Source: an uncultured Gammaproteobacteria bacterium (GTDB taxonomy: Bacteria > Patescibacteriota > Patescibacteriia > 2-12-FULL-60-25). From it: a DNA stretch of 64,000 nucleotides. Each line of letters begins with the position of its first letter. The stretch's first letter is position 1. Both the position numbers and the translations under genes were made by a program. The DNA lies in the NCBI GenBank assembly GCA_964415965.1, contig CAYQCK010000003.1, positions 3,426-67,425 on the forward strand, in the 5' to 3' direction. The notes under the pieces are model-generated. The model did not search any database. It saw only the letters and a list, made by a program, of their open reading frames with translations, and was not told the DNA's origin. Positions 39,316 through 58,067 of this stretch are shown in pieces.

Positions 39316-42300
39316 CTACTGCGTCACGCCCAGCTGGAGCGAGCCCTTGAACACGGTCCACGGCCGGAAGCTCTTGACCTTGTCCGCGGACTTGGGATAC
39401 GGGTCGCACATGTTCCTGGTCCGCGGGACGCTCGAGACGTACAGGTCCTGTTTGGAATCGCGGTTGAGCGTCTCGCCGGTGGCGTCGTAGCAGCCGCCGT
39501 ACGGCAGGAGGATGTTGTTCACGCCGGCGAAGCCCATCCCCAATTTGCCGTTCCCCAAGTCCTCGGCGCGGCATTCGCCCGAGCACCAGCCCCAGGCGTC
39601 CTTGATGATGACGCGCGGCGTGAAGCGGCAAGCGTTGTTGGTCTCGTCGAAACAGCCTCCCGGGGGCGCGATGCCGGCCACGCACTTGTCGCCCGGCGCG
39701 CAATCCGTCTTCTCGGTCGCCACGGTGCACTTCTGGGTGTTGTCGCGGTTGCAGTACATCTGGTCGCCGCAGGCCGCCGGTTTCTTGTCCTTGAGGCACT
39801 GGTAGACGTGGGTGTACTCGAAGTAGTTCTGCTCGCAGGCCCGGTCGCTGTTGCCGAAGGTCAGGCGGGGTTGGCACTTGTCGCCCACGTCCAGGCCGCC
39901 CTCGAAGCAATCCTTGTCCTCCACGCACTGGACCGACGGCTTGCTGGCGCAGTAGCTCGTGCTGACGCATTTTCCTCCGGCCGGCGGGCAGTCGTTGTTC
40001 GAGTTGCAGGTGAGTCCGGGCACGAACTCGCACTCCTTGGTCGACCCGCAGATCGGCTTCTTGTTCTTCATCCGGCTGTCATGGAACTCCTGGCTGGTGC
40101 CGTCGCCCCAATCGACCCAGATGTCCTTGATGCCCATCTGGTTGTCGGCCGCCCAGCCGTAGAACTGGATGGTGTTGACCGACTGTCCGCCGATGTACGC
40201 GACCTTGCCTTCGGCCATGCCGTCCAGGGCGAACGTCCCGACCTGCGATATCGGGCACTGTCCGGCCGACGGGCACTGGCGGGTCGTATCCGGCGCCGCC
40301 ATGGTCGGCGGCCGCGGGGCATAATAGGACATGTAGCCGTAGTTAGCCTCGTAAGGCGCCGGATCCTTCTTGTTCTTGTCCGCGATGTACGGCGGCATGT
40401 GCAGGCCGCTGCTCACGTCGGTCGGCGGCAGCCACATCTTCAGGTTGTACGACTCCTCCCCGGACTTCGGCGCCGGGACATTGCCCATGGTCCCCTGGTT
40501 GTTGTAGTCGCGCTGGGTGATGGCGGTCAGGCAGACGGCCTTGTTGAGGTCGTACCCGCACAGGTCGGCCCGGGGATAATAACCCGTGCCGTGGGTACAG
40601 GAGTTGTTGTCCTCGTCCGGGTTGGTCGCGGTCGGCGAACCCTGGTTGTTCTTGGTGGTGCAGTCGTAGTAGGGCGAGTTCGATTTCATCGGGTTGCCGT
40701 TGCCGTCAGACACCGGTTGGCAGAAATTGCTGTCATCACCGGTCACCCACAGCGGCTTGCAGGTGCTGGTCGAGGCGCAGAACATCCCGTCGAACACGCC
40801 GCCTTCGCACAAGCCGGGAGCCATGTCATCCGGACCGCTCCAGCGTATGGCCGTCGATGAGTGGTCGAAATACGGAACGTCGTGGGAGAAGCCGCCGCTG
40901 CAACCAGTTGTATCGCCTCCGAGCTTCGTGAATTCGCCGCACCTCGAAGAAGGCACCGGCAACCTCTCGCAATGCCCCGGAATCACCAACCTTACCCAAG
41001 GCGCTGACGCCGGGAAGGTGTAACCGGAATAGGGTTTGGACACTTGTCTGACGTTCACTACTCCCGGGAATCGTTTGATCGCATCTCCCGGATTTGAGTT
41101 AAGGTCGTACATGAAGTACCGGGTCCCATCCAAGGTATTTCCACCGATGTCTTTCCGCAACGTTTGGCCGTCAGTACCGAACCAACCGTCGGTTGAGTTT
41201 GACGTCCACCAGGGCACGGTTGCGGTATCGAATGACGCTTCAACCGATACGCCGACGCCCCGATACTGCTCCTTGCCGCAACTAGGCGAACCGGGACCGC
41301 ACGGATCATTGATGGGATAGTTGTAGTTCTGAGTGTCCAGATATGCGGGCCAGCTCATCTTCCATCCCGGGGTATGCGGCGTCTGGCCTTTGGACTTGGT
41401 CACCCAGGCATGGTTCTTGGGGAAAGGCATGGCCTTGTTCGGCTGGCCGCCGGCCTTGGCCGAATCCCAGAACCACCAGGTCTGCCACCAGAATGTACAA
41501 TCATAATCCTCATTGCACTGGGCGTTATCATACCCGTTGGTGCACCGATGGGTTGTCTTGTCGCAGACCGAATAACCAGCGCCCTTAGCCGATGGACCGA
41601 CTTCCAGCGGGCAGTCCAAGGACGGCATCCCTTCGCTCGGCTGGCGGCACCAGCCGTTGGTGCCGTCCGGGAACTTGACGCCGGCGTCGGCGCACTTGAA
41701 CGCGCCGGCCTTGGCCGCGGTCTTGCGCTGGACGAACTTCACGTTGCCTTGGGTGCAGCCCGGGATGCCGGCTTCGTTGCAGTCCGCCAGGGCGACCGCA
41801 TCGGTGCCGCTGTAGGCATAGCCGCTGACCGAACCGTCGTCGCCTTTGACTTCGGACCAGCCCGGCGCCAGGTCGCACGGCACGTACTGCGCCTTGAATT
41901 CCCCGTTCACCAGCCTGACCGGAGCCGCGTGGCAGACGTGATAGCCCTCGAGCGTCAGCGAGGCGCTGCACGGCAACCCGGCGTTCACGCCCGAAAGCGC
42001 GTTGCAGAACGCCGAATCGTCGTTGACCACGTCGTACAGCGTCGGGTTGCAGGTGCCGGTGTATCCGCAATATTTCTGGGACAGCGAGGCTTTGGTCGAG
42101 GCGACCAATTCATTCCAGTTTTTCTGCTGCGCGGGCGTCATCGGCTCGGCCGGCTTCGTGATCTTCGAACCGAACTTGGTGTACAGGACGGTCGCGTCGT
42201 CGACCAAGGTCTTGAGGTTGGGGCAGCGCGAACCGTAGTTCGGCCCGGCGATGCAGGCCCACGAGTTCTTGCCGACCGGCATGTCGTGGTACTGGTAGAC

Positions 42301-45300
42301 ATTGTAGATCTTGGCGAAGATGTCGTTGAGATAAGCCCAGTTGCCGAGCGGCATCATGGCCGTCTTGGCGTAGTTCGAACCGCTCGCCAGGAAGGTCGGA
42401 CGGACGCCGGACAGCTTGAACGTGGCTTTGCCGGACAGCGGACCCATCTGGTAGAGGGGATCCTTGCCGATGGCCTTGGTGTGCTTGGCCGCCCCGAACG
42501 GCGGGTTGAGCGTATCGTAGGTGAAACCCAAAGTCGGGATGGAGTACGCCCCGCCGTCCCAAATGCGGTCAGTGAAGGCGGCTGTCTCGTGGGTCGTCGG
42601 CGAGCTCGTGCGCGCCACCTGCTTGCAGATGTCGGCATGGTTCACGTCCAGGTACATGTACATGTAGCGCTCGGTCGTCGCTCCGGGATAGGATGCCGTC
42701 ACCCACCAGCCCACGAAGCGGAACGGGCCGCCCAACTGGGTACCCGACGGATCCATCTTGTTCTCCGGCACCCGGTTATCCTCCGGCGAGGCGTCCTCGA
42801 ACATCGCCCGGATGGCGAAGAACGGCTTCGACGACTCGGATTCGGCGAACATGACGTCGGCCGGGTCGAGTTTGCGCGGCCCGCCCACCGAATCGTCGAA
42901 CGTCCGGAATTTCTTCTGGCCATCGGCGCGCAAGCCCGTCTCCCAATACTTGTAATAGCACAAGGCGTCGCCTTCGCTGTCGTCGCCGTTCTCCGGATAC
43001 TTGCACGGCAGCCTGGCGAGCTTGGTGCCTTTTTCGTTCTTCAAGTAGCCGAAGTTCTCCGAGGTCAACGGCTTGAACTCGGCCATGACGCGGTTTATCA
43101 GGGTCGCGGCCGCGCTGTCCCAGCCCGCGCCGCTCTGATCGACCTTGAACTCGTCGACCCACCAGCCGGATTCGCCGCACGCCCAAGTGCCGCCGACGCC
43201 CGTCTTATACATCGGGTTGAAAACGAAGCTCGTGAAGTTCTGCTCCAGCGCCGCCTTCGCCGTCTTCGGGTCGGTCGAGGTGGCGATCTTGATGTCGTTG
43301 TACAGCCATTGGGCCCACGCGACATCATTGAATTCGATGAAATACTCAGAATAATTGCGGCCCAAACCGCGGCCCGTGGTTATCCAGCGGCCGGCGCGGA
43401 TATCGTTGGCCACGTCGCCGCCGGCATAGGCCATGCGGACGCCGGCGCAATTCGATCCGCTCTCGCCGCCATTGGCCCGCACCCCATCCAAGGTGGCTCC
43501 CAAACCGCAATGAGCCTCGTACCAATCGTCGTCACTGTTCCATGAATCATAACCCCACGGCATGGGATGGTCGTTCACGACGTCCGTGTCGATGACGTAG
43601 CACTCGTGGTAATCGAAGTGGGTGATCTTGCCCGGAGGCGTCTTGACCAACATGGACTTCAGGTCGCCCTCCGGCGGAGTTTTGCATTTGATACCGTCCT
43701 CGCTCGTACGAATGGGATACATCTTCCATTCGCAGATATTGTGGTTGGCCTGCGTCTTCATGGTCCGCGGTTCCCGCGATTTGGACAGGCAGTAGTATTC
43801 GCCGGAGCTGGCGGGCGGCAGATAGCTGGCCGTCGGTTCGTAGTGGTAGCGGTCCTGCTGGCCGGCCAAGACCGGGGCCGGGTTCCAGACCAAGCACGGG
43901 TTCCGGTCCAACGCGCCGCCCAATTTGCGGCTGTAGTCGCGCTGCAGGCACTGGCCGATGACGCCGCGGACAAAGGTGTCCTTGTCCAAAGGCGAACAGG
44001 AACCGGAACGGCACCCGGCCGGCACGATATCCGAACCGGAGATCTTCGACGGGGCGACCGCGGCATCCTGGCCAGCGATGGCCTGCGCCAAGGCGGCGTT
44101 CTGCGAAGCCTGGTCTGCCTGGCCCTGCTTCTTGGCCTGCTCGGCCGCCGCATCCGGATCGCAAGCCTTGCCTGCATCCAATCCGCCGACACAGATGCCT
44201 AGCGGCGCCGTGCCAGCGAAGGCCGAGTAGTACTTCTTCTTGGCTCCATACGACACCTTGCGGTACGAGCAATCGCAATCCTCTCCGTATTCGCAGAATT
44301 CGACCGAATCGTAGCCGTCCAGGAACGTCTTCGGCAACGGCGGATCGACCGTCAAATCCCAATCCTTGATGAATTTGTTGGCGAACGGGGAAGTCGCTTC
44401 GGGATGCGCCCGGCACTCGACGGGCGGATAATGGCGGTTCAGGTTGTTGTCCGTGGCCAGCGACGCGCTCTGTTCGAAGGTCGTCGAGATCTTTTGGGCA
44501 TTGCCGGGCAGTCCCAGGAACTGGCCCAACGCCTCGTTCAGGACGGTCGTGTAGGGCTTCTCGATCGGCAGATAGCAATTCGGCGTCGGTTCGTCCTTGA
44601 TCTTGTAGCCGATCATCCCGGTCTGCGCATGCTTGCACAGGTTGAGGTACGGATAGGCCGTATCCTTGAAATCCACGGCGAACCAGGGTTCGGTGCACGC
44701 AGCTTTGCCGTCGATGCAATCCTGGTTGGTGGCCATCGGCACGGCCGCCACCAGCCGGAACTCGTTGTACAGGGCGTCGCGCTGTTTGCCCGGCCGCATG
44801 AGTTCATACGCCACCCGGCGCATCTGCAGGTCGGACACCTGGAAATGGTTGGGGATGGTGTAGCCCGTGTAGTCGATCGAACCGAAACCCGTGATCCGCT
44901 TGATGTACGAACCGATGTCCGTGAACCGGCCCTGGGCCAGCTGGCTGGTCGGGTCTGACTTGCGGTCCACGTAATGGCCGCAGAAATTCTTGCTGGCCGC
45001 GCCGCCCGCCTGGTCACAGGCCGAGAGGTTGGTGCACAGGTCGATGTACTTCTGCTGGGACGGGTCATAGACCGTCTCGGCCGACGAGCAGCCGAGCCAG
45101 GTCTGGCAATCGCGGTCGAGCTTCACCTTGAGGATGAGGTTGGAGTCGTTGGGACGCGTGCATTTGCCTTGGTATTCCCAGGTGCCGCCCCCGACAGGAC
45201 GCTCGAAAGAGCAATCGTTATCGGTTTTACAGGAGACGTTCTGGTATGCCAGCAGGCCCGGGACGGTTGCGCTCTGGATTTCGATCGGGGCGAATATCCC

Positions 45301-48300
45301 TCCGCCCTGTTGTGTTTTCGGTCGGGCCTTTTGTTCGACGCAGCGCCCGGCATTGACGCAATGTTCGTTGGTCGGGTCGTTCTCGCAGTTGATGGTGCCC
45401 ACCGCCACATCGCCGTCGGCATGACTCTTGGCGTAGGTCGCCGTCGAATTGAACGTCAGCGAGCTGTCGTTCATGTCGCGGAACAGCACGCAGCCCGAGA
45501 GCGGATCCACCTTGCCCTTGCACGATGCCTTGTCCAAGGCCTCGTTGGCGATGAAGAAATACGGTTTGCCTTGCGGATGGGCCTGGTCGCTCTTGTCGCT
45601 CGGGTCGCGGTATTCGGTGCACTCCGACTGCTCGCTCGGGCACAGGTTGACCCAGCCGCGGTAATTCGGGGCGGCCGTGAACTCGGTCAGGAAACTGCTG
45701 CCGCCGGCCTGCTTTTCCGGATAGCACGGTACCGGCGGTTCGGCGCCTTTGACGAACCAGCCCGAATACTCACCTTCCGGATAAGCCGGATTGGCGGACG
45801 CCTTAACCTTCACCTTATCCTTCCATTCGCAGACATGGTCGCGCGGGTCGCGGAAATACGAGGTGACCGGTCCGCTCACGAATTTGTCGCACAACAGCTC
45901 GCTCGGCCGGCACAGCATGTCCGGCTCTCCCCCGCCGTCCACGTATTTCTTGATGTCGTCCTTGAGGTAGACCGTCTCGTAGGTCGAACTCGGGACGCCG
46001 AAGGCGTCGAACGTCGGTTTGCCGAAGGCGCGGCAAGACGCGGCGGTCGCGGCGCAGCGCGTGCTCGGTTCGTCGATGGCGTAGAGGTAGCGGTCGGCCG
46101 GCCGGGTGACGGTCAAGGTGCCGGCGTACAGTTTGTCCCACTGCTTGGTCAGGGTGTTCTGGTCGTAACCCGCCAGCTTGAAGTCGTCGGCATAGGCGCT
46201 GTCCGAATTCCGCGTATCGATGAACGCCGCGCACCCGACCGACTCGTAGCGGCACAACCGGCTGAACTGGCGCAGGTCCACCTTCTTGCCGTTCCGGTCG
46301 CGGTATTCGCGGCAGCCCAACATGGCCTGCGGCAGCGGCACGCCCTCCGGGGTCTGGTCGCATTCGGCCGGGACGGTCCAGGAATCCTTGTTGACGTACA
46401 CCACATCCTGCAGGCGCTGGACGGTTATCTCGTCGAAATAGCTCGGCGACGGCAGGTTGCCGAACGTCAGGGTCTGGTTCGGGCTCCCCATGGCGCGGAA
46501 CGGCCCGAGCTCATAGCGCTTCCAATCGGTGCCGGCCTTGAAACCGCCGGCCGGATTGCCGCCCAAGCTGACAGTCACGTTCTTGCCCGTATTGTCCAGT
46601 GATTTGTACCAGAAGCTGACCGAATACAGGGTATTGGTCGTGGCCGGGAACGTGACATTGAAAGTCGCCGCCGCCACCGCCGACTGGTATTTGAGCGAGT
46701 AGTCGCCGACCATCAGCGCTTCGGGCGAGAAACCGAACGTCGTGCCTTGGCCCGTGACCGAGAACGCGTTTGAGCTGGTGGCGTTGGCGAACGTCTCCTT
46801 CAGGACGACGGTCGTATTGCGGCCGGTCGTGCCCAGGTAGCCGCGGCAGCCGGCATTGACCGCGTCGCACTGGGCGCTTTCGGCCAAGAGCACGCTGTAG
46901 AGGCAGTCGCCGGTCTCGGAGCGGTAGCTGCCGCCGGTCTTGGTGCAGTCGTCGGTGTTGGAATTGTTCTTGCGGTAATCGCGGCAGTCGGCCGACGACA
47001 CCACGGTCTTAGAATAATACGAGTAGAACGCCTTGCCCTGTTCGTCGTAGAACTGGCGGCAGTCCGCATCGGCTTTCGCACCCCAATTGTCGGCGTTGCA
47101 GTCGGCGGAGTTCTTGAGGATGCCGTCAGGTCCGGCTTTCTCGATGTTCAGCGGCGCGTAATGCGGCGTCGGATCGTTGGGGTCGACCGGGGTCGGGTTC
47201 TTGATGAGGCTCCAGGTCTTGAGTTGGTAGCCGGTCGTGTCCGAACCTTCCCAGGTGAAGTACGTCTGGGAATTAGCGTTCGGTTTTTGGCAGGCGCGGG
47301 CATAGGTCAGGTAAGCCACTTCCTCGCCGCCCAAAGCCGCCGCCTCGACGTTCGTCATCCCCTCGCATCCGGCTTGGGCCGCGTTGCAGGCCTGCGCCTG
47401 CTTCGGGATGAAGACGGCCTTGGTGTCGTCCTTCGGGTCATCGAGCGGATCCGCGGACGGCACCGGCGCACCCGTGTTGACCAGGTCGAAGGCCGACGGC
47501 AGTTTCTGGTATTCGGCGTAACCGACGCATGAGTTCGGGCAATAATCGGTCTGCGACAGGATGGCCGGCACTTCGGTCGTGTCGCCCGCCCCGACTTCCG
47601 TATATCCTTGGCAGCCGGCATCGGCCTGGAGGCACATCTTGGCGTAGCCGTCGCACTCCTTGCGGTCGAGCTTGCTGTCGCCGGTGCAATTGAATTCCTC
47701 CGGCGGAAGCTTGATGTGCAACGACGGCAATCCCGGGTTGTTGCCGTCCAGGAAATCGGTCGGGGCGAAACCTTCTTCGAGCTGGACCGCGTCGATGGCC
47801 GCGTTCGTGCCGGCCACCGCAATCTTCGCCGTTTGCGCGTCCTTGTTCGTCAGGAACTCGCAGGTGAAGCGCGTCCAATCGGCGGTCAACCCTCCGGCGC
47901 CGACGTTGGCGCGGGTCTGGGCCGCCCCTCCGGGCGCCCCGACGATCGTCGAATTGCAGTTCGGGCTGCGGTAATAGTTCGTGCCCGCCGCGACATCGGT
48001 CCCCGCCGCATTCAACAAAACCGCGGTCACTGAAGCTATCCCGGCCGGACCGTTGCCGCGGGCATAGAAGGACAGCACGTAATTCCTCAAAGGCTTGACC
48101 TTGACCCTCTGGACCAGCGGCACGACCACCGCGCCGAACGCCTGGCTGCGGCTGCCTTCGAAAGATACATCGCCGTCCTGCGTATCCAGCGCTTTGACTA
48201 CAGCCGGAGCTGACGGGTTCGCGCTATCGGACCAGCCGTCATAATAACCGTCCTGGTTCTTCAGCGTGTCCTCGAACGAACCGTTACGCACCAGGTTCAG

Positions 48301-50454
48301 GGCATTCTGGCTCGGCTGGACGCGCAGTACCTTGGTGCAGCCGTCGCCCGACGCGTCGCATTTCTCGACCTTGGAGTCGAAGTAGACGCGCGGCATCGTG
48401 CCGAGGGTCACGGATTTCTTGTCGGTCGTGGCAGTATTGAGCCATTTCAGGGTCGAGGTCACGGACATGTCGTATTGCGCGGAGTAGAACATGCAGCCGA
48501 CATTGTCCTGGTTGCAGGCGCCGTAATCCACGGAATTGCGCACGTACGACACCTCCGCGCCCTTCTGGTAACCGTCGCTCCGCGATTTGTAGGTCCGGCA
48601 GCTGACGAATTTCTCGTCGCAAGCGTCGGCGCCGAAACGCCAGACCGTCTTCTCGGCCAAGCAGTACCCGTAACCGCCGGTGCAGACGCCCTTGTCGTCG
48701 CGCTTGAGGCACGAGACCGGATCCGCGCATTCCTGCAGGCGGGCGCTCGTGCCTTGGACCATCAAGGTATCGCTGTAGCCTTTCAGCTGGCACTTGAACG
48801 GCGGCGCCGTCAGCACCCAGGCCGGGTCGATCAGGTGGCACCACGGATGCTCGGCATCGAGCTTATTGTCCTTGTTGCAGTCGTTGTAGCCGCGGATGAC
48901 CGTCCCGAGGGTCACGTACTTGCCGCTGTTCTTGATGTTGAACGGGGAATTCGCCGCCAACTCCCAGCCGATGGGCAGGATGCGGGCGAACCGCAACTTG
49001 GCCAGGTTGGAGGCGCAATAGGCGCGCTGATAGCAACCCGGATCCTGGTCGTTCTTGACGTCCGTCGCCGGGATGAGCTCCCAGTCCTTGTGCAGGAATG
49101 CGGCCGGCGCGGCGCCGCCCAGGCCGGCCGCGCGGGACACGGTGTAGGCGCCTTCCGTGGTCGCGTTCTTCACGGCCGAGACCATGCCGTCGTCCATGGT
49201 GCAATGCCAATAACCGCGGTTGTCCGGACAGATCGCCATCTCGGACACGATATCCAGCATGTCCATGGTCACCATGTTCGGCGAGATGATGTCGGTGAAG
49301 GCCTTGGCCCGCGCTTTCTTCGGTTCGGCCGCCTTTTCGGCGTACGGGTTCGTCAGATCCATCTGGTAGTTGGTGTCGTCGCTCGAATCCTCGCCCATCA
49401 GGAAAGCCAAAAGCTTCTGGAGCGCGCCGGTCGCCAAGGTCGAGAGGAAAGCCATGCCGGCCACGACAGGCAGCTGCTCGATGGTGGCCCACATGGCCTG
49501 CAGGGCCATGTTGTTGACCTGGGCGATGGTCATGTCCTTCACCAAGCCGGCTTGGTTGTTCTGCGCGATGGTCTCTTGGATGACGACGGCCGGCGTCTTG
49601 ATTTCAGGGTTGAGAGGGCCACGTTTGACCGTCTTCAGGCCCTTGGTCTCTTGGCGGTCGAGTTCGGCCGCTTTCTGTTCTTCGGACTTGCCGACCAGGT
49701 ACATGCTGTTGACGCGCAAGTTGAAGTCGAAATCGTTGCCGCCGACATCCACGCTCCTGACCATGGCCACGGCGATATCCCGGGGCTTGAGCTGGCGGTA
49801 CATGTTCTCGAAATTCTCCTTGACTCCCTGGAACGTACAATCCGGCCCCGGGACCTTGGCGACCGAGCCGATGCCGAGCGCCAGCTTCATGCCGAAGTTC
49901 GGCTGGGTACACAACCCCAGGCCCCACTGTTTGTCCAACTGGTCGATGAACCGGTTGGTGAATTCCATGCCCAGGTTCTTGACCATGCCCCCGAATCCCT
50001 GGCGCCAAAAAGCCGGCTGGCCGTGCATGCCCTCAAGCACCCACTGGGCCGTCTGCTGGCCGATGGTGATGGCGAAATTGAACAGTACGTCGGACAATGC
50101 CCTGACCACGACCATCTGGAGATAGCCTCCGACTTTCGCGACCTGGCCCTTAAGGACCTCGAAATACTGGCAATCTGGAGCCATTTCTTGCCCAAACACC
50201 CAACTGGATATGCCTCCATACATCCCAGGCATCGATCTAGCCTGCCAATCATACGAACTGCAGACCGGAGTCTCCATCGCGACCTGGGCGATCGCACTGT
50301 AGTCCTCGTCCGCGGCCTTGGCTTCCGGGACCGCTGCGGCCAGCGATGCCGTGACCAGCGAAAGCATGGCCAGCATCATCGAGCCTTTCGCCAACAGGCG
50401 GTAGCATTTTTTCAGGACAGCGGGCATAGCGTTTTTAGGGGTATATTTCGGCAC
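39316..50454 (-). CDS. giant (3712 aa) cysteine-rich secreted or surface protein
   Basis: Single uninterrupted 11.1-kb ORF. N-terminal signal/anchor (SMMLAMLSLVTASLAAAVPEAKA). Well over 100 Cys spread throughout and Gly/Asp/Asn/Thr-rich. No internal stops and the composition is not Arg-rich. Confidence 0.85.
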   Translation of the reverse strand: MPKYTPKNAMPAVLKKCYRLLAKGSMMLAMLSLVTASLAAAVPEAKAADEDYSAIAQVAMETPVCSSYDWQARSMPGMYGGISSWVFGQEMAPDCQYFEVLKGQVAKVGGYLQMVVVRALSDVLFNFAITIGQQTAQWVLEGMHGQPAFWRQGFGGMVKNLGMEFTNRFIDQLDKQWGLGLCTQPNFGMKLALGIGSVAKVPGPDCTFQGVKENFENMYRQLKPRDIAVAMVRSVDVGGNDFDFNLRVNSMYLVGKSEEQKAAELDRQETKGLKTVKRGPLNPEIKTPAVVIQETIAQNNQAGLVKDMTIAQVNNMALQAMWATIEQLPVVAGMAFLSTLATGALQKLLAFLMGEDSSDDTNYQMDLTNPYAEKAAEPKKARAKAFTDIISPNMVTMDMLDIVSEMAICPDNRGYWHCTMDDGMVSAVKNATTEGAYTVSRAAGLGGAAPAAFLHKDWELIPATDVKNDQDPGCYQRAYCASNLAKLRFARILPIGWELAANSPFNIKNSGKYVTLGTVIRGYNDCNKDNKLDAEHPWCHLIDPAWVLTAPPFKCQLKGYSDTLMVQGTSARLQECADPVSCLKRDDKGVCTGGYGYCLAEKTVWRFGADACDEKFVSCRTYKSRSDGYQKGAEVSYVRNSVDYGACNQDNVGCMFYSAQYDMSVTSTLKWLNTATTDKKSVTLGTMPRVYFDSKVEKCDASGDGCTKVLRVQPSQNALNLVRNGSFEDTLKNQDGYYDGWSDSANPSAPAVVKALDTQDGDVSFEGSRSQAFGAVVVPLVQRVKVKPLRNYVLSFYARGNGPAGIASVTAVLLNAAGTDVAAGTNYYRSPNCNSTIVGAPGGAAQTRANVGAGGLTADWTRFTCEFLTNKDAQTAKIAVAGTNAAIDAVQLEEGFAPTDFLDGNNPGLPSLHIKLPPEEFNCTGDSKLDRKECDGYAKMCLQADAGCQGYTEVGAGDTTEVPAILSQTDYCPNSCVGYAEYQKLPSAFDLVNTGAPVPSADPLDDPKDDTKAVFIPKQAQACNAAQAGCEGMTNVEAAALGGEEVAYLTYARACQKPNANSQTYFTWEGSDTTGYQLKTWSLIKNPTPVDPNDPTPHYAPLNIEKAGPDGILKNSADCNADNWGAKADADCRQFYDEQGKAFYSYYSKTVVSSADCRDYRKNNSNTDDCTKTGGSYRSETGDCLYSVLLAESAQCDAVNAGCRGYLGTTGRNTTVVLKETFANATSSNAFSVTGQGTTFGFSPEALMVGDYSLKYQSAVAAATFNVTFPATTNTLYSVSFWYKSLDNTGKNVTVSLGGNPAGGFKAGTDWKRYELGPFRAMGSPNQTLTFGNLPSPSYFDEITVQRLQDVVYVNKDSWTVPAECDQTPEGVPLPQAMLGCREYRDRNGKKVDLRQFSRLCRYESVGCAAFIDTRNSDSAYADDFKLAGYDQNTLTKQWDKLYAGTLTVTRPADRYLYAIDEPSTRCAATAASCRAFGKPTFDAFGVPSSTYETVYLKDDIKKYVDGGGEPDMLCRPSELLCDKFVSGPVTSYFRDPRDHVCEWKDKVKVKASANPAYPEGEYSGWFVKGAEPPVPCYPEKQAGGSSFLTEFTAAPNYRGWVNLCPSEQSECTEYRDPSDKSDQAHPQGKPYFFIANEALDKASCKGKVDPLSGCVLFRDMNDSSLTFNSTATYAKSHADGDVAVGTINCENDPTNEHCVNAGRCVEQKARPKTQQGGGIFAPIEIQSATVPGLLAYQNVSCKTDNDCSFERPVGGGTWEYQGKCTRPNDSNLILKVKLDRDCQTWLGCSSAETVYDPSQQKYIDLCTNLSACDQAGGAASKNFCGHYVDRKSDPTSQLAQGRFTDIGSYIKRITGFGSIDYTGYTIPNHFQVSDLQMRRVAYELMRPGKQRDALYNEFRLVAAVPMATNQDCIDGKAACTEPWFAVDFKDTAYPYLNLCKHAQTGMIGYKIKDEPTPNCYLPIEKPYTTVLNEALGQFLGLPGNAQKISTTFEQSASLATDNNLNRHYPPVECRAHPEATSPFANKFIKDWDLTVDPPLPKTFLDGYDSVEFCEYGEDCDCSYRKVSYGAKKKYYSAFAGTAPLGICVGGLDAGKACDPDAAAEQAKKQGQADQASQNAALAQAIAGQDAAVAPSKISGSDIVPAGCRSGSCSPLDKDTFVRGVIGQCLQRDYSRKLGGALDRNPCLVWNPAPVLAGQQDRYHYEPTASYLPPASSGEYYCLSKSREPRTMKTQANHNICEWKMYPIRTSEDGIKCKTPPEGDLKSMLVKTPPGKITHFDYHECYVIDTDVVNDHPMPWGYDSWNSDDDWYEAHCGLGATLDGVRANGGESGSNCAGVRMAYAGGDVANDIRAGRWITTGRGLGRNYSEYFIEFNDVAWAQWLYNDIKIATSTDPKTAKAALEQNFTSFVFNPMYKTGVGGTWACGESGWWVDEFKVDQSGAGWDSAAATLINRVMAEFKPLTSENFGYLKNEKGTKLARLPCKYPENGDDSEGDALCYYKYWETGLRADGQKKFRTFDDSVGGPRKLDPADVMFAESESSKPFFAIRAMFEDASPEDNRVPENKMDPSGTQLGGPFRFVGWWVTASYPGATTERYMYMYLDVNHADICKQVARTSSPTTHETAAFTDRIWDGGAYSIPTLGFTYDTLNPPFGAAKHTKAIGKDPLYQMGPLSGKATFKLSGVRPTFLASGSNYAKTAMMPLGNWAYLNDIFAKIYNVYQYHDMPVGKNSWACIAGPNYGSRCPNLKTLVDDATVLYTKFGSKITKPAEPMTPAQQKNWNELVASTKASLSQKYCGYTGTCNPTLYDVVNDDSAFCNALSGVNAGLPCSASLTLEGYHVCHAAPVRLVNGEFKAQYVPCDLAPGWSEVKGDDGSVSGYAYSGTDAVALADCNEAGIPGCTQGNVKFVQRKTAAKAGAFKCADAGVKFPDGTNGWCRQPSEGMPSLDCPLEVGPSAKGAGYSVCDKTTHRCTNGYDNAQCNEDYDCTFWWQTWWFWDSAKAGGQPNKAMPFPKNHAWVTKSKGQTPHTPGWKMSWPAYLDTQNYNYPINDPCGPGSPSCGKEQYRGVGVSVEASFDTATVPWWTSNSTDGWFGTDGQTLRKDIGGNTLDGTRYFMYDLNSNPGDAIKRFPGVVNVRQVSKPYSGYTFPASAPWVRLVIPGHCERLPVPSSRCGEFTKLGGDTTGCSGGFSHDVPYFDHSSTAIRWSGPDDMAPGLCEGGVFDGMFCASTSTCKPLWVTGDDSNFCQPVSDGNGNPMKSNSPYYDCTTKNNQGSPTATNPDEDNNSCTHGTGYYPRADLCGYDLNKAVCLTAITQRDYNNQGTMGNVPAPKSGEESYNLKMWLPPTDVSSGLHMPPYIADKNKKDPAPYEANYGYMSYYAPRPPTMAAPDTTRQCPSAGQCPISQVGTFALDGMAEGKVAYIGGQSVNTIQFYGWAADNQMGIKDIWVDWGDGTSQEFHDSRMKNKKPICGSTKECEFVPGLTCNSNNDCPPAGGKCVSTSYCASKPSVQCVEDKDCFEGGLDVGDKCQPRLTFGNSDRACEQNYFEYTHVYQCLKDKKPAACGDQMYCNRDNTQKCTVATEKTDCAPGDKCVAGIAPPGGCFDETNNACRFTPRVIIKDAWGWCSGECRAEDLGNGKLGMGFAGVNNILLPYGGCYDATGETLNRDSKQDLYVSSVPRTRNMCDPYPKSADKVKSFRPWTVFKGSLQLGVTQ

Positions 50455-54593: not shown

Positions 54594-54790
54594 AGGATGG
54601 CTTTCGCCCCAAATAACAAAACAAGGCCTAAGGTAATCCGCATCCAAGAAACCTATTTATAGGGGAGTGCAAGTCCGAAGACCTGCGGCACCCTACGAAA
54701 GAGGTTCCATGCTTGTCGTGGACGCGGATTGCCCCAGACCTCGTGGCCTCGGCTATCCGTCAAGCTGTCAAAGCGCTGGCGTAATGAGTG

Positions 54791-54819
54791 GTTATAACAT
54801 GCCCCGGAAATCCTGTCAA
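54791..54819 (-). promoter_or_regulatory. sigma70-like promoter (TTGACA-N17-TATAAC) driving a ~400-nt leader that contains the copy-B RNA element
   Basis: The reverse strand reads TTGACAggatttccggggcatgtTATAAC. A perfect -35 and a near-consensus -10. Confidence 0.5.
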
Positions 54820-54952: not shown

Positions 54953-54980
54953 AAAAAATCCGCGTAAATGCGCGGATTTC
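54953..54980 (-). terminator. rho-independent terminator downstream of smc
   Basis: The reverse strand reads AAATCCGCGcatttaCGCGGATTTTTTAT. Confidence 0.6.
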
Positions 54981-55011: not shown

Positions 55012-57273
55012 CTAGGTCTTCAGCTGACGCTCGGCTGGCTGGTCCAGCTTGACCGACAGCAACTGGGACACGCCGTCGTCACCCATAGTCACGCCGTAGA
55101 GCACGTTCGCCTTGTTCATGGTCGCCCGGTTGTGGGTCACGACGATGAACTGCGTCCGATCCGAGAGCGTGTCGATGATCTCGGCGAACTTCCGCGAATT
55201 GGCCTCGTCGAGCGCCGCGTCTACCTCGTCCAGGACCACGAACGGCGACGGGTTGATGGCCATGATGGCGCAGATGAGCGCAATGGAGGTCAAGGCGCGT
55301 TCGCCGCCAGACAGCAGGGCGATGGCTTTGAGCCGCTTGCCGGGCGGCGTGGCGTGGATCTCAATGCCCGCCGGCTGCGCTTCCCCCTCCCCTTCATCCC
55401 CGATGCCGCCCTCCACCTCTTCCGCCCCAGCATCCTGCTTCAAGCTTCCGGCTTCCGGGTTATCGCCTGCCGAATCCGATTCTATCTTCACCAGTTCGGC
55501 CTCGCCGCCGCCGAACAGCTTCTTGAAGAACACGCCGAACTCCTGGTTCAGCTGGCGGAACGCCACGTCGCCGCGTTCCTTGATGGTCCGGTCGAGCTCG
55601 GCGATGACCGTCTCGAGCGAGGCGATGGCCTGCCGCAAATCGGTCGACTGGGTCGTCAGGTGCTCGAAGCGCTCCTTAGTCGTTTCGTATTCCTTGACCG
55701 TCTCGGGGTCGATGCCGCCAATCCACTCGAGCTGGGAACGCAGCCGCTGCATCCGACTGCGCAAGGCCTCGGCTTCGGCCTCGGCTTTGGCGGCCGTATC
55801 GGCCATGGCTTCAAGCTCGCCCTCGAGCGTCCCGGCCTGCTGGCGCAACTCGGCCAAGAAGCCCTCGCGCCGCGTCTCGAGCCGGGCCAGGTCGACGGCT
55901 GAGGCCGACACCCTCTGCTCGGCCTGCTGGGCTTCGTGGCGCTTGGCCGTAAGCCTGCGCTGCAGGTCGAACAACTGGCTGCGGCTCTCGTCCTCCTTGC
56001 GGTTCAAGGCCTGGAGTTTGGCTTCCATTTCCCCGATCTTGGCCGCGACTTCCGACATCTCCTTGGCCAGCTGGCCGAATTCCTTCTCGAGCTCCGGATC
56101 CGCCTGTTCCTTCACCGGCTCGGGGGCGGGCTGTTGGAGTTGGGAAACCAGCTTCTGGTTTTCGGCCTTGAGCTCCTGAGCCAATTTCTTGGCCTTGTCC
56201 CAATCCGGCTTGGCCGACTCGAGTTCCTTGATGAGCTCGTCCTGCTTCGACGACAACCCCTCGATGCGCTCGATGATCTTGGTGAGCGGCAAAGGCGACC
56301 ACGGCTGCTTGGACTGGACTTTGGCCACCTCGCGCCGCGACTCTAGCCTGATCTGCCGTTCGCGCAGCTTGCTCCGTTCTTCCTTGAGCCCATCGATGGC
56401 CGCGCGCATCTCGCGCAATTCGCTCGAGACCGGCGTCGCCTTCTCCAGCTTGCCCAATTCCTGTTCGACCGCCTCGGCTTCGCGCTCTTTCGCGGCATGG
56501 TCCTGCTTGGCCTTTTCGGCCGCGGCCTGCGCCGCTTTGAGCTGGCTCCGCAACCCGGCCCAGACGCCGCCGAAATACTCGCGTTCCACCTGGTGCAGCT
56601 CCTGCTCCAAAGCCTCGCGCTGGCGCAGGCGCTTGACCTGGCGCTCGAGCGAAGTGAGCCGCGGCTCGATCTCGCGCAGCATAAGCTCGGCCTGCTTAAG
56701 GTTGTCCCGGGCGTTATCCACCTTGTTGACCGCCGAGTGGCGCTTGAGCTGGAACGGCTTGAGGCCCGACGCCTCGTCGAAGAACTCGCGGCGCTCCCCC
56801 GGGCTGGCCGACAGGACCGCGTCAACCATGCCCTGTCCGATGACGCTGTAGGTCCGCTGGCCGACGCCGCATTGCGCCAACAGCATCGTCACGTCCATAA
56901 GCTTGGCCGCCTGCTTGTTGATTTCGTATTCGGATTGCCCGTCGCGGTACAGCCGGCGCGTGATGACGATCTCGGGCAGATCGATCTCCGGGTTGCGCTC
57001 GTTCGTGATGGTCATGCTGGCTTCGGCGAAGCCGGCGCGCGGTTTCTTGGCCGAACCCGAGAAGATGACGTCCTCCGATTTTTTGCTGCGCAGCAGCTTC
57101 ATGCTCTGCTCGCCCATCACCCAGCGCAAGGCGTCGGCGACGTTGGACTTGCCGGACCCGTTCGGCCCCACGATGCCGGTCACGCCGCGCTTGTCGGCGC
57201 CCGGCACGAATTCCAGCACGGTCTTTTGGGCGAAGGTCTTGAACCCTTGGAGTTCCAGGCGGGAGAGATACAT
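55012..57273 (-). CDS. smc: SMC-family chromosome segregation ATPase, short form lacking a recognisable hinge domain
   Basis: SMC N-head (LELQGFKTF...IVGPNGSGKSNVADALRWVMGEQSMKLLRSKKSEDVIF) and C-head (LSGGERALTSIALICAI...VVLDEVDAALDE), with only ~410 aa of coiled coil between them and no Gly-rich hinge. About 753 aa from MYLSRLEL. Confidence 0.8.
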   Translation of the reverse strand: MYLSRLELQGFKTFAQKTVLEFVPGADKRGVTGIVGPNGSGKSNVADALRWVMGEQSMKLLRSKKSEDVIFSGSAKKPRAGFAEASMTITNERNPEIDLPEIVITRRLYRDGQSEYEINKQAAKLMDVTMLLAQCGVGQRTYSVIGQGMVDAVLSASPGERREFFDEASGLKPFQLKRHSAVNKVDNARDNLKQAELMLREIEPRLTSLERQVKRLRQREALEQELHQVEREYFGGVWAGLRSQLKAAQAAAEKAKQDHAAKEREAEAVEQELGKLEKATPVSSELREMRAAIDGLKEERSKLRERQIRLESRREVAKVQSKQPWSPLPLTKIIERIEGLSSKQDELIKELESAKPDWDKAKKLAQELKAENQKLVSQLQQPAPEPVKEQADPELEKEFGQLAKEMSEVAAKIGEMEAKLQALNRKEDESRSQLFDLQRRLTAKRHEAQQAEQRVSASAVDLARLETRREGFLAELRQQAGTLEGELEAMADTAAKAEAEAEALRSRMQRLRSQLEWIGGIDPETVKEYETTKERFEHLTTQSTDLRQAIASLETVIAELDRTIKERGDVAFRQLNQEFGVFFKKLFGGGEAELVKIESDSAGDNPEAGSLKQDAGAEEVEGGIGDEGEGEAQPAGIEIHATPPGKRLKAIALLSGGERALTSIALICAIMAINPSPFVVLDEVDAALDEANSRKFAEIIDTLSDRTQFIVVTHNRATMNKANVLYGVTMGDDGVSQLLSVKLDQPAERQLKT

Positions 57274-57395
57274 ATAGCCCACATAGATTACTTAAAAAAC
57301 CGCTCTTCGGGAAGGGGAAAAGCCGCACCCGGCGGCATTGACAAGGCTGCCGGAATATGGTTTGCTGGGACATCGTCCCTTGAAAGGAGTCTTGC

Positions 57396-58067
57396 ATGGA
57401 CCAGATCATCCGGCTCGGCTGCGCCGGCCTCGCGTCTTCCTTCACGACCATTTTCGGCCTCGTGATGGACCGGTCAGGCTCGATGCAGCGCTTCGGCGAC
57501 GCGCCGGAGAAAGCCATCAACGACCACATCGTTTCGCTCCAGGCCGACCCGAACGCCGGCAACGCCATCGGTTTCGTCATCGCCTTCGCCGACGACGTCG
57601 AGCTACCCATCCCGCCCCAGCCCCTGGCCGGTATGCCCCGCCTCACCGGCTATTCGCCGACCGGCAGCGCCACCCGGCTCTACGGCACGGTGCTCACGGC
57701 GCTCAAGGAGATGCTCGAACTGCAGTCCAAGGCCCAGTCCAAGGGCGCGGACACCGGCCTCATCCTGACCGTCTTCACGGACGGCCAGGACAACGCTTCG
57801 ACCGAAGAGGAGCGGGTCGAACTGTGCGAACTCTCGGGACAGGCGCTGGAGAAAGGCCTGGACCTGCTGGTCGTCGGCATCGGCACGCCCGGCGAGGACA
57901 TCGCGCTCAAGATGGGCTTCCCGCCCAAGTGCGCCGTCACCATCGAGGCCCAGGCCGCGGCCATCCGCGAAACCATGGTCGGCGTGACCCGACGGACGTG
58001 CATGACCATGACCGGAATGGGCCGGTCGGTCCCCGCCACCCCGACTCCCCCGCCCTCGTCCCGCTGA
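57396..58067 (+). CDS. von Willebrand factor type A (VWA) domain protein
   Basis: MIDAS motif DRSGSM, then TRLYGT and TDGQDN. 223 aa. Confidence 0.7.
   Translation: MDQIIRLGCAGLASSFTTIFGLVMDRSGSMQRFGDAPEKAINDHIVSLQADPNAGNAIGFVIAFADDVELPIPPQPLAGMPRLTGYSPTGSATRLYGTVLTALKEMLELQSKAQSKGADTGLILTVFTDGQDNASTEEERVELCELSGQALEKGLDLLVVGIGTPGEDIALKMGFPPKCAVTIEAQAAAIRETMVGVTRRTCMTMTGMGRSVPATPTPPPSSR

Follow-up and report, generated by a model that had tools for sequence, protein, structure and literature searches.

The smc gene and its features

On the reverse strand of the window (the whole 64-kb stretch of DNA that was analysed) lies an smc gene for a short-armed SMC protein that has no hinge. The open reading frame at this locus, 55012..57282, would encode 756 aa from a GTG start. 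Since all homologues begin with MYL/MHL..LELQGFK, translation must begin at the ATG at 57273, giving a product of 753 aa; with the start chosen in this way, the interval that the initial annotation had assigned to a 753-aa SMC is exact. The frame is intact and strongly coding (GC3 = 0.87). The features of the locus, in the order of the protein, are:

55012..57273, minus strand: smc gene, hinge-free short-armed SMC; 753 codons plus stop, translation checked
56761..57273, minus strand: ATPase head, N-terminal half (residues 1-171), modelled by AF2 with a beta/alpha head fold
57145-57168, minus strand: Walker A, GPNGSGKS; coordinate-checked
56827-56841, minus strand: Q-loop, in the N-terminal half of the head
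56329..56760, minus strand: N-terminal arm helix, residues 172-315; AF2 helices H172-277 and H283-315, with heptad-like hydrophobic spacing
56428-56442, minus strand: conserved short break KATPV, residues 278-282, in the N-terminal arm
56287..56328, minus strand: proline collar 1, residues 316-329; opens the motif KPWSPLPLSKII; low-confidence loop in the AF2 monomer model
56140..56286, minus strand: tip helix-turn-helix hairpin, residues 330-378, 49 aa; AF2 helices H330-351 and H358-378
56083..56139, minus strand: proline collar 2, residues 379-397; motif LQ(Q/R)PAPEP....DP; low-confidence loop in the AF2 monomer model
55513..56082, minus strand: C-terminal arm helix, residues 398-587; AF2 helices H398-493, H498-519 and H524-587
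55015..55512, minus strand: ATPase head, C-terminal half (residues 588-753); motifs invariant
55375..55488, minus strand: acidic disordered insertion in the C-terminal half of the head, residues 596-633; pLDDT 36-38
55300-55314, minus strand: signature LSGGE; coordinate-checked
55219-55242, minus strand: Walker B, FVVLDEVD; coordinate-checked
55126-55140, minus strand: H-loop, VTHNR; coordinate-checked
54953..54979, minus strand: intrinsic terminator hairpin and U-tract, AAATCCGCGCATTTACGCGGATTTTTT, 33 nt past the smc stop codon

A weak Leu_leader match also takes in this hairpin, as its terminator portion. We further note a new structured RNA of ~125 nt directly downstream of the smc gene.

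The heads are of the SMC type

Judged from its sequence, the product is a genuine SMC ATPase with SMC-type rather than RecN-type heads. SMC_N (Pfam) covers residues 2-736 (E=1.6e-65), and with 651.3 bits the protein passes the 567.35-bit cutoff of the curated NCBIfam equivalog model for bacterial SMC (TIGR02168, 1181 positions). This match comes in two stretches; in the first, residues 2-380 lie on model positions 1-368. In alignments to full-length eukaryotic SMCs, residues 4-366 correspond to SMC2 4-365 and residues 402-730 to SMC3 862-1191. The absent part is therefore approximately canonical residues 370-860, comprising the hinge and the distal half of both arms.

The ATPase motifs (Walker A, Q-loop, signature LSGGE, Walker B, D-loop and H-loop) are complete and invariant in 116 homologues, and every motif quoted in the initial annotation, from those of the two head halves to QQPAPEP, was located and its coordinates checked. 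The N-terminal half of the head aligns to residues 1-209 of the B. subtilis Smc head (E=4e-51) and residues 634-748 align to its C-terminal head (E=1e-34), while residues 483-595 align to the head-proximal coiled coil of the same protein; the neck region (residues 170-219) is strongly conserved. The top PDB sequence matches are the B. subtilis and Geobacillus Smc heads, and the top fold matches are prokaryotic Smc heads with coiled coil and joint and ScpA-bound Smc heads (5xei at 1.7e-27, 5xg3, 5xns). The acidic insertion in the C-terminal half of the head varies in length within the family (gapped alignment columns 640-680) and is longest in this protein, whereas the equivalent loop of B. subtilis Smc is short. 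The only cysteines are C135 and C668, with none between 136 and 667.

A helical tip module takes the place of the hinge

The segment between the heads spans 419 aa and is all-helical in the AF2 model. Its arm strands, of 144 aa (N-terminal) and 190 aa (C-terminal), average ~167 aa and are modelled as antiparallel, and a further break, EWIGGIDPET (residues 516-525), is conserved within the C-terminal arm. SMC_hinge (PF06470) gave no match even at E<=10 in the query protein or in 26 tip fragments, and a profile of the tip searched against PDB retrieved neither hinge nor hook, its best match (E=0.05) being an unrelated coiled coil. Across the 82 residues from 316 to 397 there are one Gly, eight Pro and no Cys. 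The domain HMM, the structure-profile search and the AF2 model are thus all negative for a hinge, and the loss of the canonical globular hinge from this SMC, as the initial annotation had proposed, is confirmed. Its description of the central region was borne out only in part: a Gly-rich hinge domain is indeed absent, but instead of a continuous coiled coil with proline-containing breaks the region holds a conserved, structured tip module.

This module consists of the 49-aa hairpin, with the turn AKPDWD (residues 352-357), flanked by the two collar motifs KPWSPLPLSKII and KLQ(Q/R)PAPEP. The tip motifs are the best-conserved segment outside the heads. The first is near-invariant and extends from collar 1 into the tip helix; among 116 sequences, P327, L328, L330 and I333 are invariant in this region and W325, P329 and I334 are conserved in at least 97%. 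In collar 2, L379 is invariant and Q380, P382, A383, P384, E385 and D392 are likewise conserved in at least 97%. The tip helices carry hydrophobic residues at a/d and at additional e/g positions, more densely than the arms, together with a polar H/Q344-N372 layer. The length of the tip is fixed across 30 homologues, apart from the loss of one residue from the turn in P0017.

Hinge loss extends across a large clade

Each of the best 120 homologues is 708-797 aa long and hinge-free. A DNA probe for the KPWSPLPLSKII motif recovered 52 orthologous genes, each from a different species-level genome of Uhrbacteria/Patescibacteria (GTDB), with the motif at the same position and gene lengths of 732-762 aa. 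The length agrees within +/-15 aa between 31 complete orthologues, which come from independent assemblies, some at chromosome level. The recurrence of the gene in the 52 independent genomes, the lengths of the 120 best homologues and the lack of internal repeats all speak against an internal assembly deletion, the concern raised by the initial annotation, and we take the gene to be real and maintained by selection. The named relatives are Candidatus Uhrbacteria or Patescibacteria, on contigs of ~1.1-1.3 Mb, and the others are placeholder-titled or unclassified MAGs. Because the relatives are Uhrbacteria/Patescibacteria on contigs of this size, the initial suggestion of a reduced condensin in a streamlined genome fits.

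By length, the wider relatives form three sharply separated classes, and PF06470 is absent from all ten sampled representatives spanning these classes. Hinge loss is thus common to a large Patescibacteria clade with three arm-length classes and is not peculiar to the query gene. In an 895-aa relative the model is again all-helical, with an identical arm-break-helix-turn-helix-break-arm layout and a mean arm of ~238 aa. Smc arms are constrained to discrete lengths, the natural modes being 163, 238 and 341 aa (PMC5344682); the two modelled proteins, with mean arms of ~167 and ~238 aa, fit the first two of these modes.

The sequence of the tip is less widely shared. Among 150 representatives, the tip HMM gave significant matches throughout the query's subclade but in only one protein of the mid class (890 aa), P0153 (3.5e-5); elsewhere its matches are positionally suggestive only. 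Since it reaches a single mid-class member, homology of the tip across the classes rests on architecture and not on sequence. The WSPLPL/PAPEP collars are confined to the query's subclade, and so they do not offer a general solution to dimerisation for all hinge-free relatives.

Genomic neighbourhood

The neighbours of the gene are housekeeping genes. In Uhrbacteria the synteny is stable, with gyrA-clpP-DHH-rbfA on one side of smc and VanW-HSP20 on the other, and in other hinge-free lineages smc is adjoined by rpsP-KH-trmD and rplS-cmk, which is classic smc synteny. These housekeeping neighbourhoods, together with the classic synteny in the relatives, identify the query gene as an smc orthologue. 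Neither mre11/sbcD nor repair genes are adjacent. Within the 64-kb window, scpA/scpB were found neither among ~40 genes (Pfam) nor among 10 unassigned ORFs (NCBIfam), and no tblastn match to ScpA was obtained in ~574 kb of related Patescibacteria loci with a B. subtilis probe (validated against PDB 3zgx/5xg3).

A tip-joined SMC dimer as the favoured interpretation

The reading that we favour, and consider probable, is that the gene encodes the housekeeping SMC orthologue of an Uhrbacteria-type CPR bacterium, from a clade that has lost the hinge, and that the protein organises the chromosome as a dimer joined at its tips. Dimerisation would most likely proceed through the helical tip. A dimeriser other than a hinge is plausible: B. 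subtilis Smc stays functional when its hinge is exchanged for a Rad50 zinc hook (PMC5344682), and the hydrophobic pattern of the tip is dense. That the collars appear as low-confidence loops in a monomer model is compatible with, though no proof of, a need for a partner. Two protomers would join constitutively at their tips, where the hairpins would pack against each other as a four-helix bundle with the collars as its clamp, and the resulting rod would be ~25 nm long as against the usual 47-50 nm. ATP would drive engagement and disengagement of the heads, as in Smc-ScpAB, and the complex would organise and segregate a chromosome of ~1 Mb, presumably with a kleisin, an assumed partner, bridging the heads.

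More tentatively, and with slightly less than even confidence, we extend this to the Patescibacteria radiation, including at least Uhrbacteria, Buchananbacteria and Falkowbacteria. Hinge-less SMC orthologues may organise chromosomes throughout this group, with a helical-hairpin dimerisation tip in place of the hinge and three arm lengths that obey the periodic constraint of B. subtilis Smc.

The alternative that survives best, although we think it unlikely, is an SMC orthologue whose tip does not dimerise. The hairpin would then be closed on itself and the protomers would associate only by ATP-dependent head engagement, perhaps with a kleisin, and the role of the tip and collars would be that of a cap, of a flexible elbow or of a site where another factor (a loader, for instance) docks. 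Proline-rich, low-confidence collar loops would suit a peptide-like docking motif, their restriction to one subclade is what would be expected of a lineage-specific interaction rather than of core architecture, and dimerisation through the tip is something that we infer. To our knowledge, however, every characterised long-armed SMC-family protein has a constitutive distal dimeriser, whether a hinge, a zinc hook or the coiled-coil tip of RecN. A tip that does not dimerise would run against this pattern (also PMC5344682), against a hairpin length that is fixed apart from the single-residue deletion in one of 30 homologues, and against a number of hydrophobic positions that exceeds the needs of a self-contained two-helix hairpin.

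It is considerably less probable that the protein is a RecN- or Rad50-like DNA-repair ATPase that has retained SMC-like heads and tethers broken DNA ends. RecN, of ~550 aa, dimerises via its coiled coil, and the hinge-free head/coiled-coil/head topology and the size of the query resemble it; scpAB, moreover, are not seen locally in the 64-kb window. Against this, the recN model TIGR00634 gives 47.4 bits where its cutoff is 407.85, and Rad50 models give no more than 72 bits where 700-1087 are required, whereas the SMC model passes its own cutoff. The fold matches are to Smc heads, with Rad50 far lower, and there is no CXXC. The synteny of the relatives is that of smc, with no mre11/sbcD or repair gene adjoining. 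The initial annotation's combination of a RecN-like topology with SMC-type heads agrees with these scores (651 bits for SMC, 47 for recN).

Membership in an anti-phage or anti-plasmid defence system, as the SMC-like part of Lamassu (LmuB), MADS (mad3) or Wadjet (JetC), is very improbable. PADLOC does report matches to mad3 (200 bits), LmuB (80 bits) and JetC (37 bits), but all three are head matches of a generic kind and fall well short of the 651 bits for SMC. The three neighbouring ORFs that were scanned have no PADLOC match, the smc gene stands as a single gene that ends in its own terminator, and its housekeeping synteny is stable across genomes whose SMC is 59-92% identical to the query. 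With no LmuB, MADS or Jet partner genes nearby and a far stronger SMC match, a defence-system component was rejected. The JetC score, the housekeeping neighbours and the same three ORFs likewise give no indication of membership in MukB/MksB/JetC (Wadjet).

An assembly artefact or decaying pseudogene, through an internal deletion or a collapsed repeat, is effectively refuted: beyond the suspicion that so short a gene aroused at the outset nothing was found to support it, the frame is intact with a GC3 of 0.87, the tip motifs are near-invariant, the length recurs in the 31 complete orthologues from independent assemblies, and a collapsed repeat was rejected as no tandem repeat inside the gene scores >47.

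Significance of a hinge-free housekeeping SMC

The hinge is normally universal in SMC proteins and is regarded as one of their defining elements, important to the mechanism; it is credited with constitutive dimerisation, DNA binding, a gate for DNA entry or bypass, and contact with the heads upon elbow folding. If the more tentative reading for the Patescibacteria radiation is correct, DNA gating by the hinge, DNA binding by the hinge and elbow-mediated contact between hinge and head would all be dispensable in nature to the core SMC mechanism. The query, a natural smc orthologue with no hinge and arms of half length, conserved in many species, is the evolutionary counterpart of a laboratory finding, namely that it does not matter which fold the dimerisation domain has (PMC5344682). 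It bounds the features that general models of loop extrusion may require and offers a test, provided by nature, of the parts that an SMC needs, and the three sharp length classes lend independent natural support to periodic constraints on arm length. At 753 aa the protein is also small for an SMC, which makes it attractive for structural and single-molecule studies.

No description of the CPR hinge-free SMC family, its tip module or its arm classes was found in the searchable literature, where a match for 'segregation and condensation protein' with Patescibacteria concerned the host bacterium and not the CPR cell. The relatives carry the NCBI name 'AAA family ATPase' even though the query passes the TIGR02168 cutoff. 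With genes annotated only in this way, condensin may be scored as absent in surveys of CPR genomes.

Comparison with known systems

Archaea-specific SMC-related proteins (ASRP) are SMC-superfamily ATPases that are not known to carry a canonical hinge. The query reaches 72.6 bits with the ASRP model NF045487 against a cutoff of 300, and while ASRP are archaeal paralogues it is a bacterial smc orthologue. Like RecN, it shows a head/antiparallel coiled-coil/head arrangement without a globular hinge and belongs to a comparable size class; unlike RecN, which is a repair protein with no kleisin, it has heads that are not RecN-type and an smc-like genomic context. Its ABC-type heads, its long coiled coil and its small apex without a hinge recall Rad50/SbcC, from which it differs in having neither a CXXC zinc hook nor an adjacent gene for Mre11/SbcD.

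The only earlier report of a hinge-less SMC that was found describes an abundant, monophyletic 'hinge-less' clade of marine Actinomycetes in ocean metagenomes (Sussfeld et al. 2025, PMC12153180). Matched by description, the query resembles this clade in its SMC-type (COG1196) heads, its hinge-free coiled coil and its lack of a CXXC hook. The named relatives of the query are Patescibacteria, whereas that clade is of marine Actinomycetes, and the report makes no mention of hinge loss in CPR, of arm-length classes or of a conserved tip motif. A second precedent comes from B. subtilis chimeras, in which Mini-Smc and Smc(zinc-hook) proteins with shortened arms and an unrelated dimeriser can still support function (Burmann et al. 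2017, PMC5344682). Those are laboratory constructs with a zinc hook, and the query is a natural protein with a helical hairpin at its tip.

With the bacterial Smc of Smc-ScpAB (TIGR02168; PDB 5xg3/3zgx) the query shares all head motifs, the conserved neck and head-proximal coiled coil and the same fold, its head being ~50% identical to that of B. subtilis Smc. It departs from bacterial Smc in lacking the hinge, in having arms of ~167 aa as compared with ~340 aa per strand (47-50 nm), and in carrying the 49-aa helical hairpin with its proline collars and the acidic insertion in the C-terminal half of the head.

An intact SMC gene without a hinge

An intact open reading frame lies at 55012..57282 on the minus strand of the window. 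Because aligned homologues uniformly begin MYL/MHL..LELQGFK, we place the start at the ATG at 57273, which gives 753 aa, the same length as in the initial annotation; the motifs listed there are all present in the translation, and their coordinates are verified. The coding statistics (GC1/2/3 = 0.66/0.40/0.87) are typical for the source genome. The Pfam SMC_N match covers residues 2-736 (1.6e-65), and the bacterial SMC equivalog model TIGR02168 (NCBIfam) scores 651 bits against a cutoff of 567, matching in two stretches of which the first places residues 2-380 on positions 1-368 of the 1181-position model. In alignments with full-length eukaryotic SMCs, residues 4-366 pair with SMC2 4-365 and residues 402-730 with SMC3 862-1191. 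These mappings indicate that about 490 canonical residues, comprising the hinge and the distal half of both arms, are gone. On sequence, fold and synteny grounds the protein is Smc. NCBIfam models, PADLOC and a residue check reject RecN, Rad50, ASRP, MukB/JetC and LmuB as identities; PADLOC reports only generic head similarity for the protein and no defence matches in three scanned ORFs neighbouring smc. We further note that NCBI labels hinge-free orthologues 'AAA family ATPase', an annotation gap.

Four independent tests agree that the hinge is really absent, as first proposed. No match to the hinge family PF06470 is found in Pfam even at E<=10, nor in 26 family fragments spanning residues 300-410. 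A profile of residues 300-410 searched against 177,635 PDB sequences finds no SMC/MukB hinge and no Rad50 hook, the best match being an unrelated coiled coil (E=0.05). The AlphaFold2 model, built on 116 homologues, is wholly helical between the heads (pLDDT 76.6). Across residues 316-397 there is a single glycine, with eight prolines and no cysteine, a composition that excludes a Gly-rich hinge as well as a CXXC hook.

An assembly artefact, such as the internal deletion considered earlier, is rejected, since the length class recurs in independent assemblies and a repeat scan of the gene found no tandem repeats of note. The 120 best database matches are all 708-797 aa long (58-100% identity), none with a precomputed hinge, and originate from assemblies made independently (NCBI, JGI, ENA and Logan), some on contigs over 1 Mb. 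Their organism names are Candidatus Uhrbacteria, Patescibacteria or Parcubacteria. The Uhrbacteria-type gene also occurs in about 20 TPA assemblies under the title 'uncultured Gammaproteobacteria bacterium', a title that therefore looks like a placeholder or a misclassification. With a degenerate DNA probe directed at the tip motif, 55 loci were identified among 185,579 GTDB species genomes, 52 with the motif at the equivalent position within smc and three chance matches. Among the 33 smc genes complete in their probe locus, 31 encode 732-762 aa; the other two (460 and 633 aa) are ascribed to the start-codon pattern taking an internal start.

A conserved helical tip between short arms

The central region had been described as continuous coiled coil with proline-containing breaks. 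The breaks are there, but alignments show more than plain coiled coil in the centre: a structured tip stands between two near-invariant proline motifs, or collars. The modelled elements, in protein residues, are as follows.

172-315 (144 aa): helical N arm with a conserved KATPV break (AlphaFold2 model)
330-351 and 358-378: tip helix-turn-helix with turn AKPDWD, bracketed by the collars (AlphaFold2 model)
398-587 (190 aa): helical C arm (AlphaFold2 model)
596-633 (55375-55488, minus strand): disordered insertion in the C-terminal head (pLDDT below 40), acidic and rich in glycine

Collar 1 (K-P-W-S-P-L-P-L-S-K-I-I, residues 323-334) is invariant at P327, L328, L330 and I333 and at least 97% conserved at W325, P329 and I334. 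Collar 2 (L-Q-(Q/R)-P-A-P-E-P, residues 379-386) is followed by D392-P393. In the monomer model both collars are low-confidence loops (316-329 and 379-397). The tip hairpin is free of indels across 30 homologues, with the sole exception of P0017, which has a one-residue deletion at the turn. Its hydrophobic residues follow a/d spacing with extra e/g positions (I334, 348, 350, 364/365 and 376), a pattern denser than that of the flanking arms, and H/Q344 and N372 form a central polar layer. At 0.148 nm per residue, the model suggests a rod with an arm of ~21 nm and a tip of ~3 nm. The head insertion varies in length family-wide, is longest here, and may serve as a DNA mimic or as a regulator at the head.

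Three length classes in a wider hinge-free clade

Searching 1.84 billion cluster representatives exhaustively yielded 13,540 matches at E<1e-30. The best 150 of these (P0121-P0270; 36-57% identity) fall into three sharp length classes, with inter-head segment modes of 417+/-10, 552+/-10 and about 700+/-17 aa, spaced by ~68-74 aa per arm strand. PF06470 is missing in all ten members sampled across the classes, and their centres are glycine-poor and helical. A modelled 895-aa member (pLDDT 81.5) is likewise helical throughout the region between its heads, with the same layout (helix 326-391, break, helix 398-420, turn, helix 427-450, break, helix 459-520). Buchananbacteria (758 aa) and Falkowbacteria (1084 aa) are among the named members; the WSPLPL/PAPEP collars are found only in the subclade of the window protein.

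With arm length averaged over the N and C strands, as in Burmann et al., the modelled arms measure ~167 aa in the window protein and ~238 aa in the 895-aa relative, values that depend on where the tip boundary is placed. Natural SMC arm-length modes are 163 (minor), 238 and 341 aa (Burmann et al., PMC5344682), and with these boundaries the modelled arms appear to coincide with the first two. The third class would have arms of roughly 309 aa if its tip is of equal size, which fits the published modes less well.

Genomic context

Features around smc are listed below.

57396-58067, plus strand, divergent from smc: VWA-like protein with a DxSxS MIDAS motif (VWA_2 E=0.0018)
54791-54819, minus strand: promoter-like boxes
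~54617-54742, minus strand: structured RNA, between the smc terminator and a DUF3006-like ORF

One flank holds the VWA-like gene and rbfA; the other holds smc's own terminator, the conserved RNA, the DUF3006-like ORF, VanW and HSP20. The order is the same in genomes with SMCs at 92%, 71% and 59% identity to the window protein. In three loci of relatives (L001-L003) the VWA-like position holds a gene of 222-235 aa, which is absent in a fourth (L004). In other hinge-free lineages smc adjoins rpsP-KH-trmD or rplS-cmk, the classical bacterial smc neighbourhood, which supports positional orthology. Within the 64-kb window we found no scpA, scpB, recN or second smc.

The 640-bp 'gap' 3' of smc holds the structured RNA, about 125 nt long and without an Rfam match. 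Of its 43 predicted pairs, 14 show compensatory double changes, and invariant G.U pairs fix its strand as minus. Its shape is that of a rod: a 26-bp stem closes it, the apical hairpin carries a UUCG cap, CGACAAGCAU is unpaired and invariant, and the 3' side has a U-tract. Searched with a covariance model, each locus yields precisely one copy, scoring 135-155 bits. In 19 of the 38 Uhrbacteria species genomes with this region covered, the RNA lies between 144 and 965 nt downstream of smc. It may represent an independent sRNA, or else the leader of a DUF3006-VanW operon.

Elsewhere in the window, an 861-aa protein (30708-33293, minus strand) matches the shoulder domain of Major Vault Protein (PF11978, 2.6e-11) and, weakly, a vault repeat; a vault-type shoulder domain is unusual in a CPR bacterium. 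A giant ORF (39316-50454, minus strand) encodes 3712 aa, probably a surface or adhesin-type protein; syntenic giant genes of relatives (3685-4400 aa) have no confident precomputed Pfam match. The 64 kb include a complete 16S rRNA gene (17735-19240, minus strand) and neither a 23S nor a 5S gene, indicating unlinked rRNA genes.

Proposed mechanism and comparison with known systems

The protein combines a catalytically complete SMC-type head with short antiparallel arms and a conserved helical tip, and its gene is under strong purifying selection in a housekeeping orthologous context. To our knowledge, SMC proteins follow the rule that a distal dimeriser exists. This rule, the tip hydrophobic pattern, the collars disordered in the monomer and the experimental replaceability of the hinge fold (PMC5344682) suggest that the tip would mediate constitutive homodimerisation, forming a four-helix bundle that is clamped by the proline collars. 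The main rival explanation treats the tip as a cap or docking site, with dimers forming solely through the heads. The heads would undergo an ATP-driven cycle and may be bridged by a kleisin, a partner that we assume.

The protein departs from textbook Smc in two features, having neither a hinge nor arms of standard length. Natural hinge-less SMCs have already been published, in a marine clade assigned to Actinomycetes (PMC12153180), and we found no description in the full texts searched of hinge-lacking SMCs from CPR/Patescibacteria, of the tip module or of the length classes. The idea of a hinge-less SMC is thus known and the CPR hinge-free family appears to be new, and it should be of clear interest to SMC specialists.
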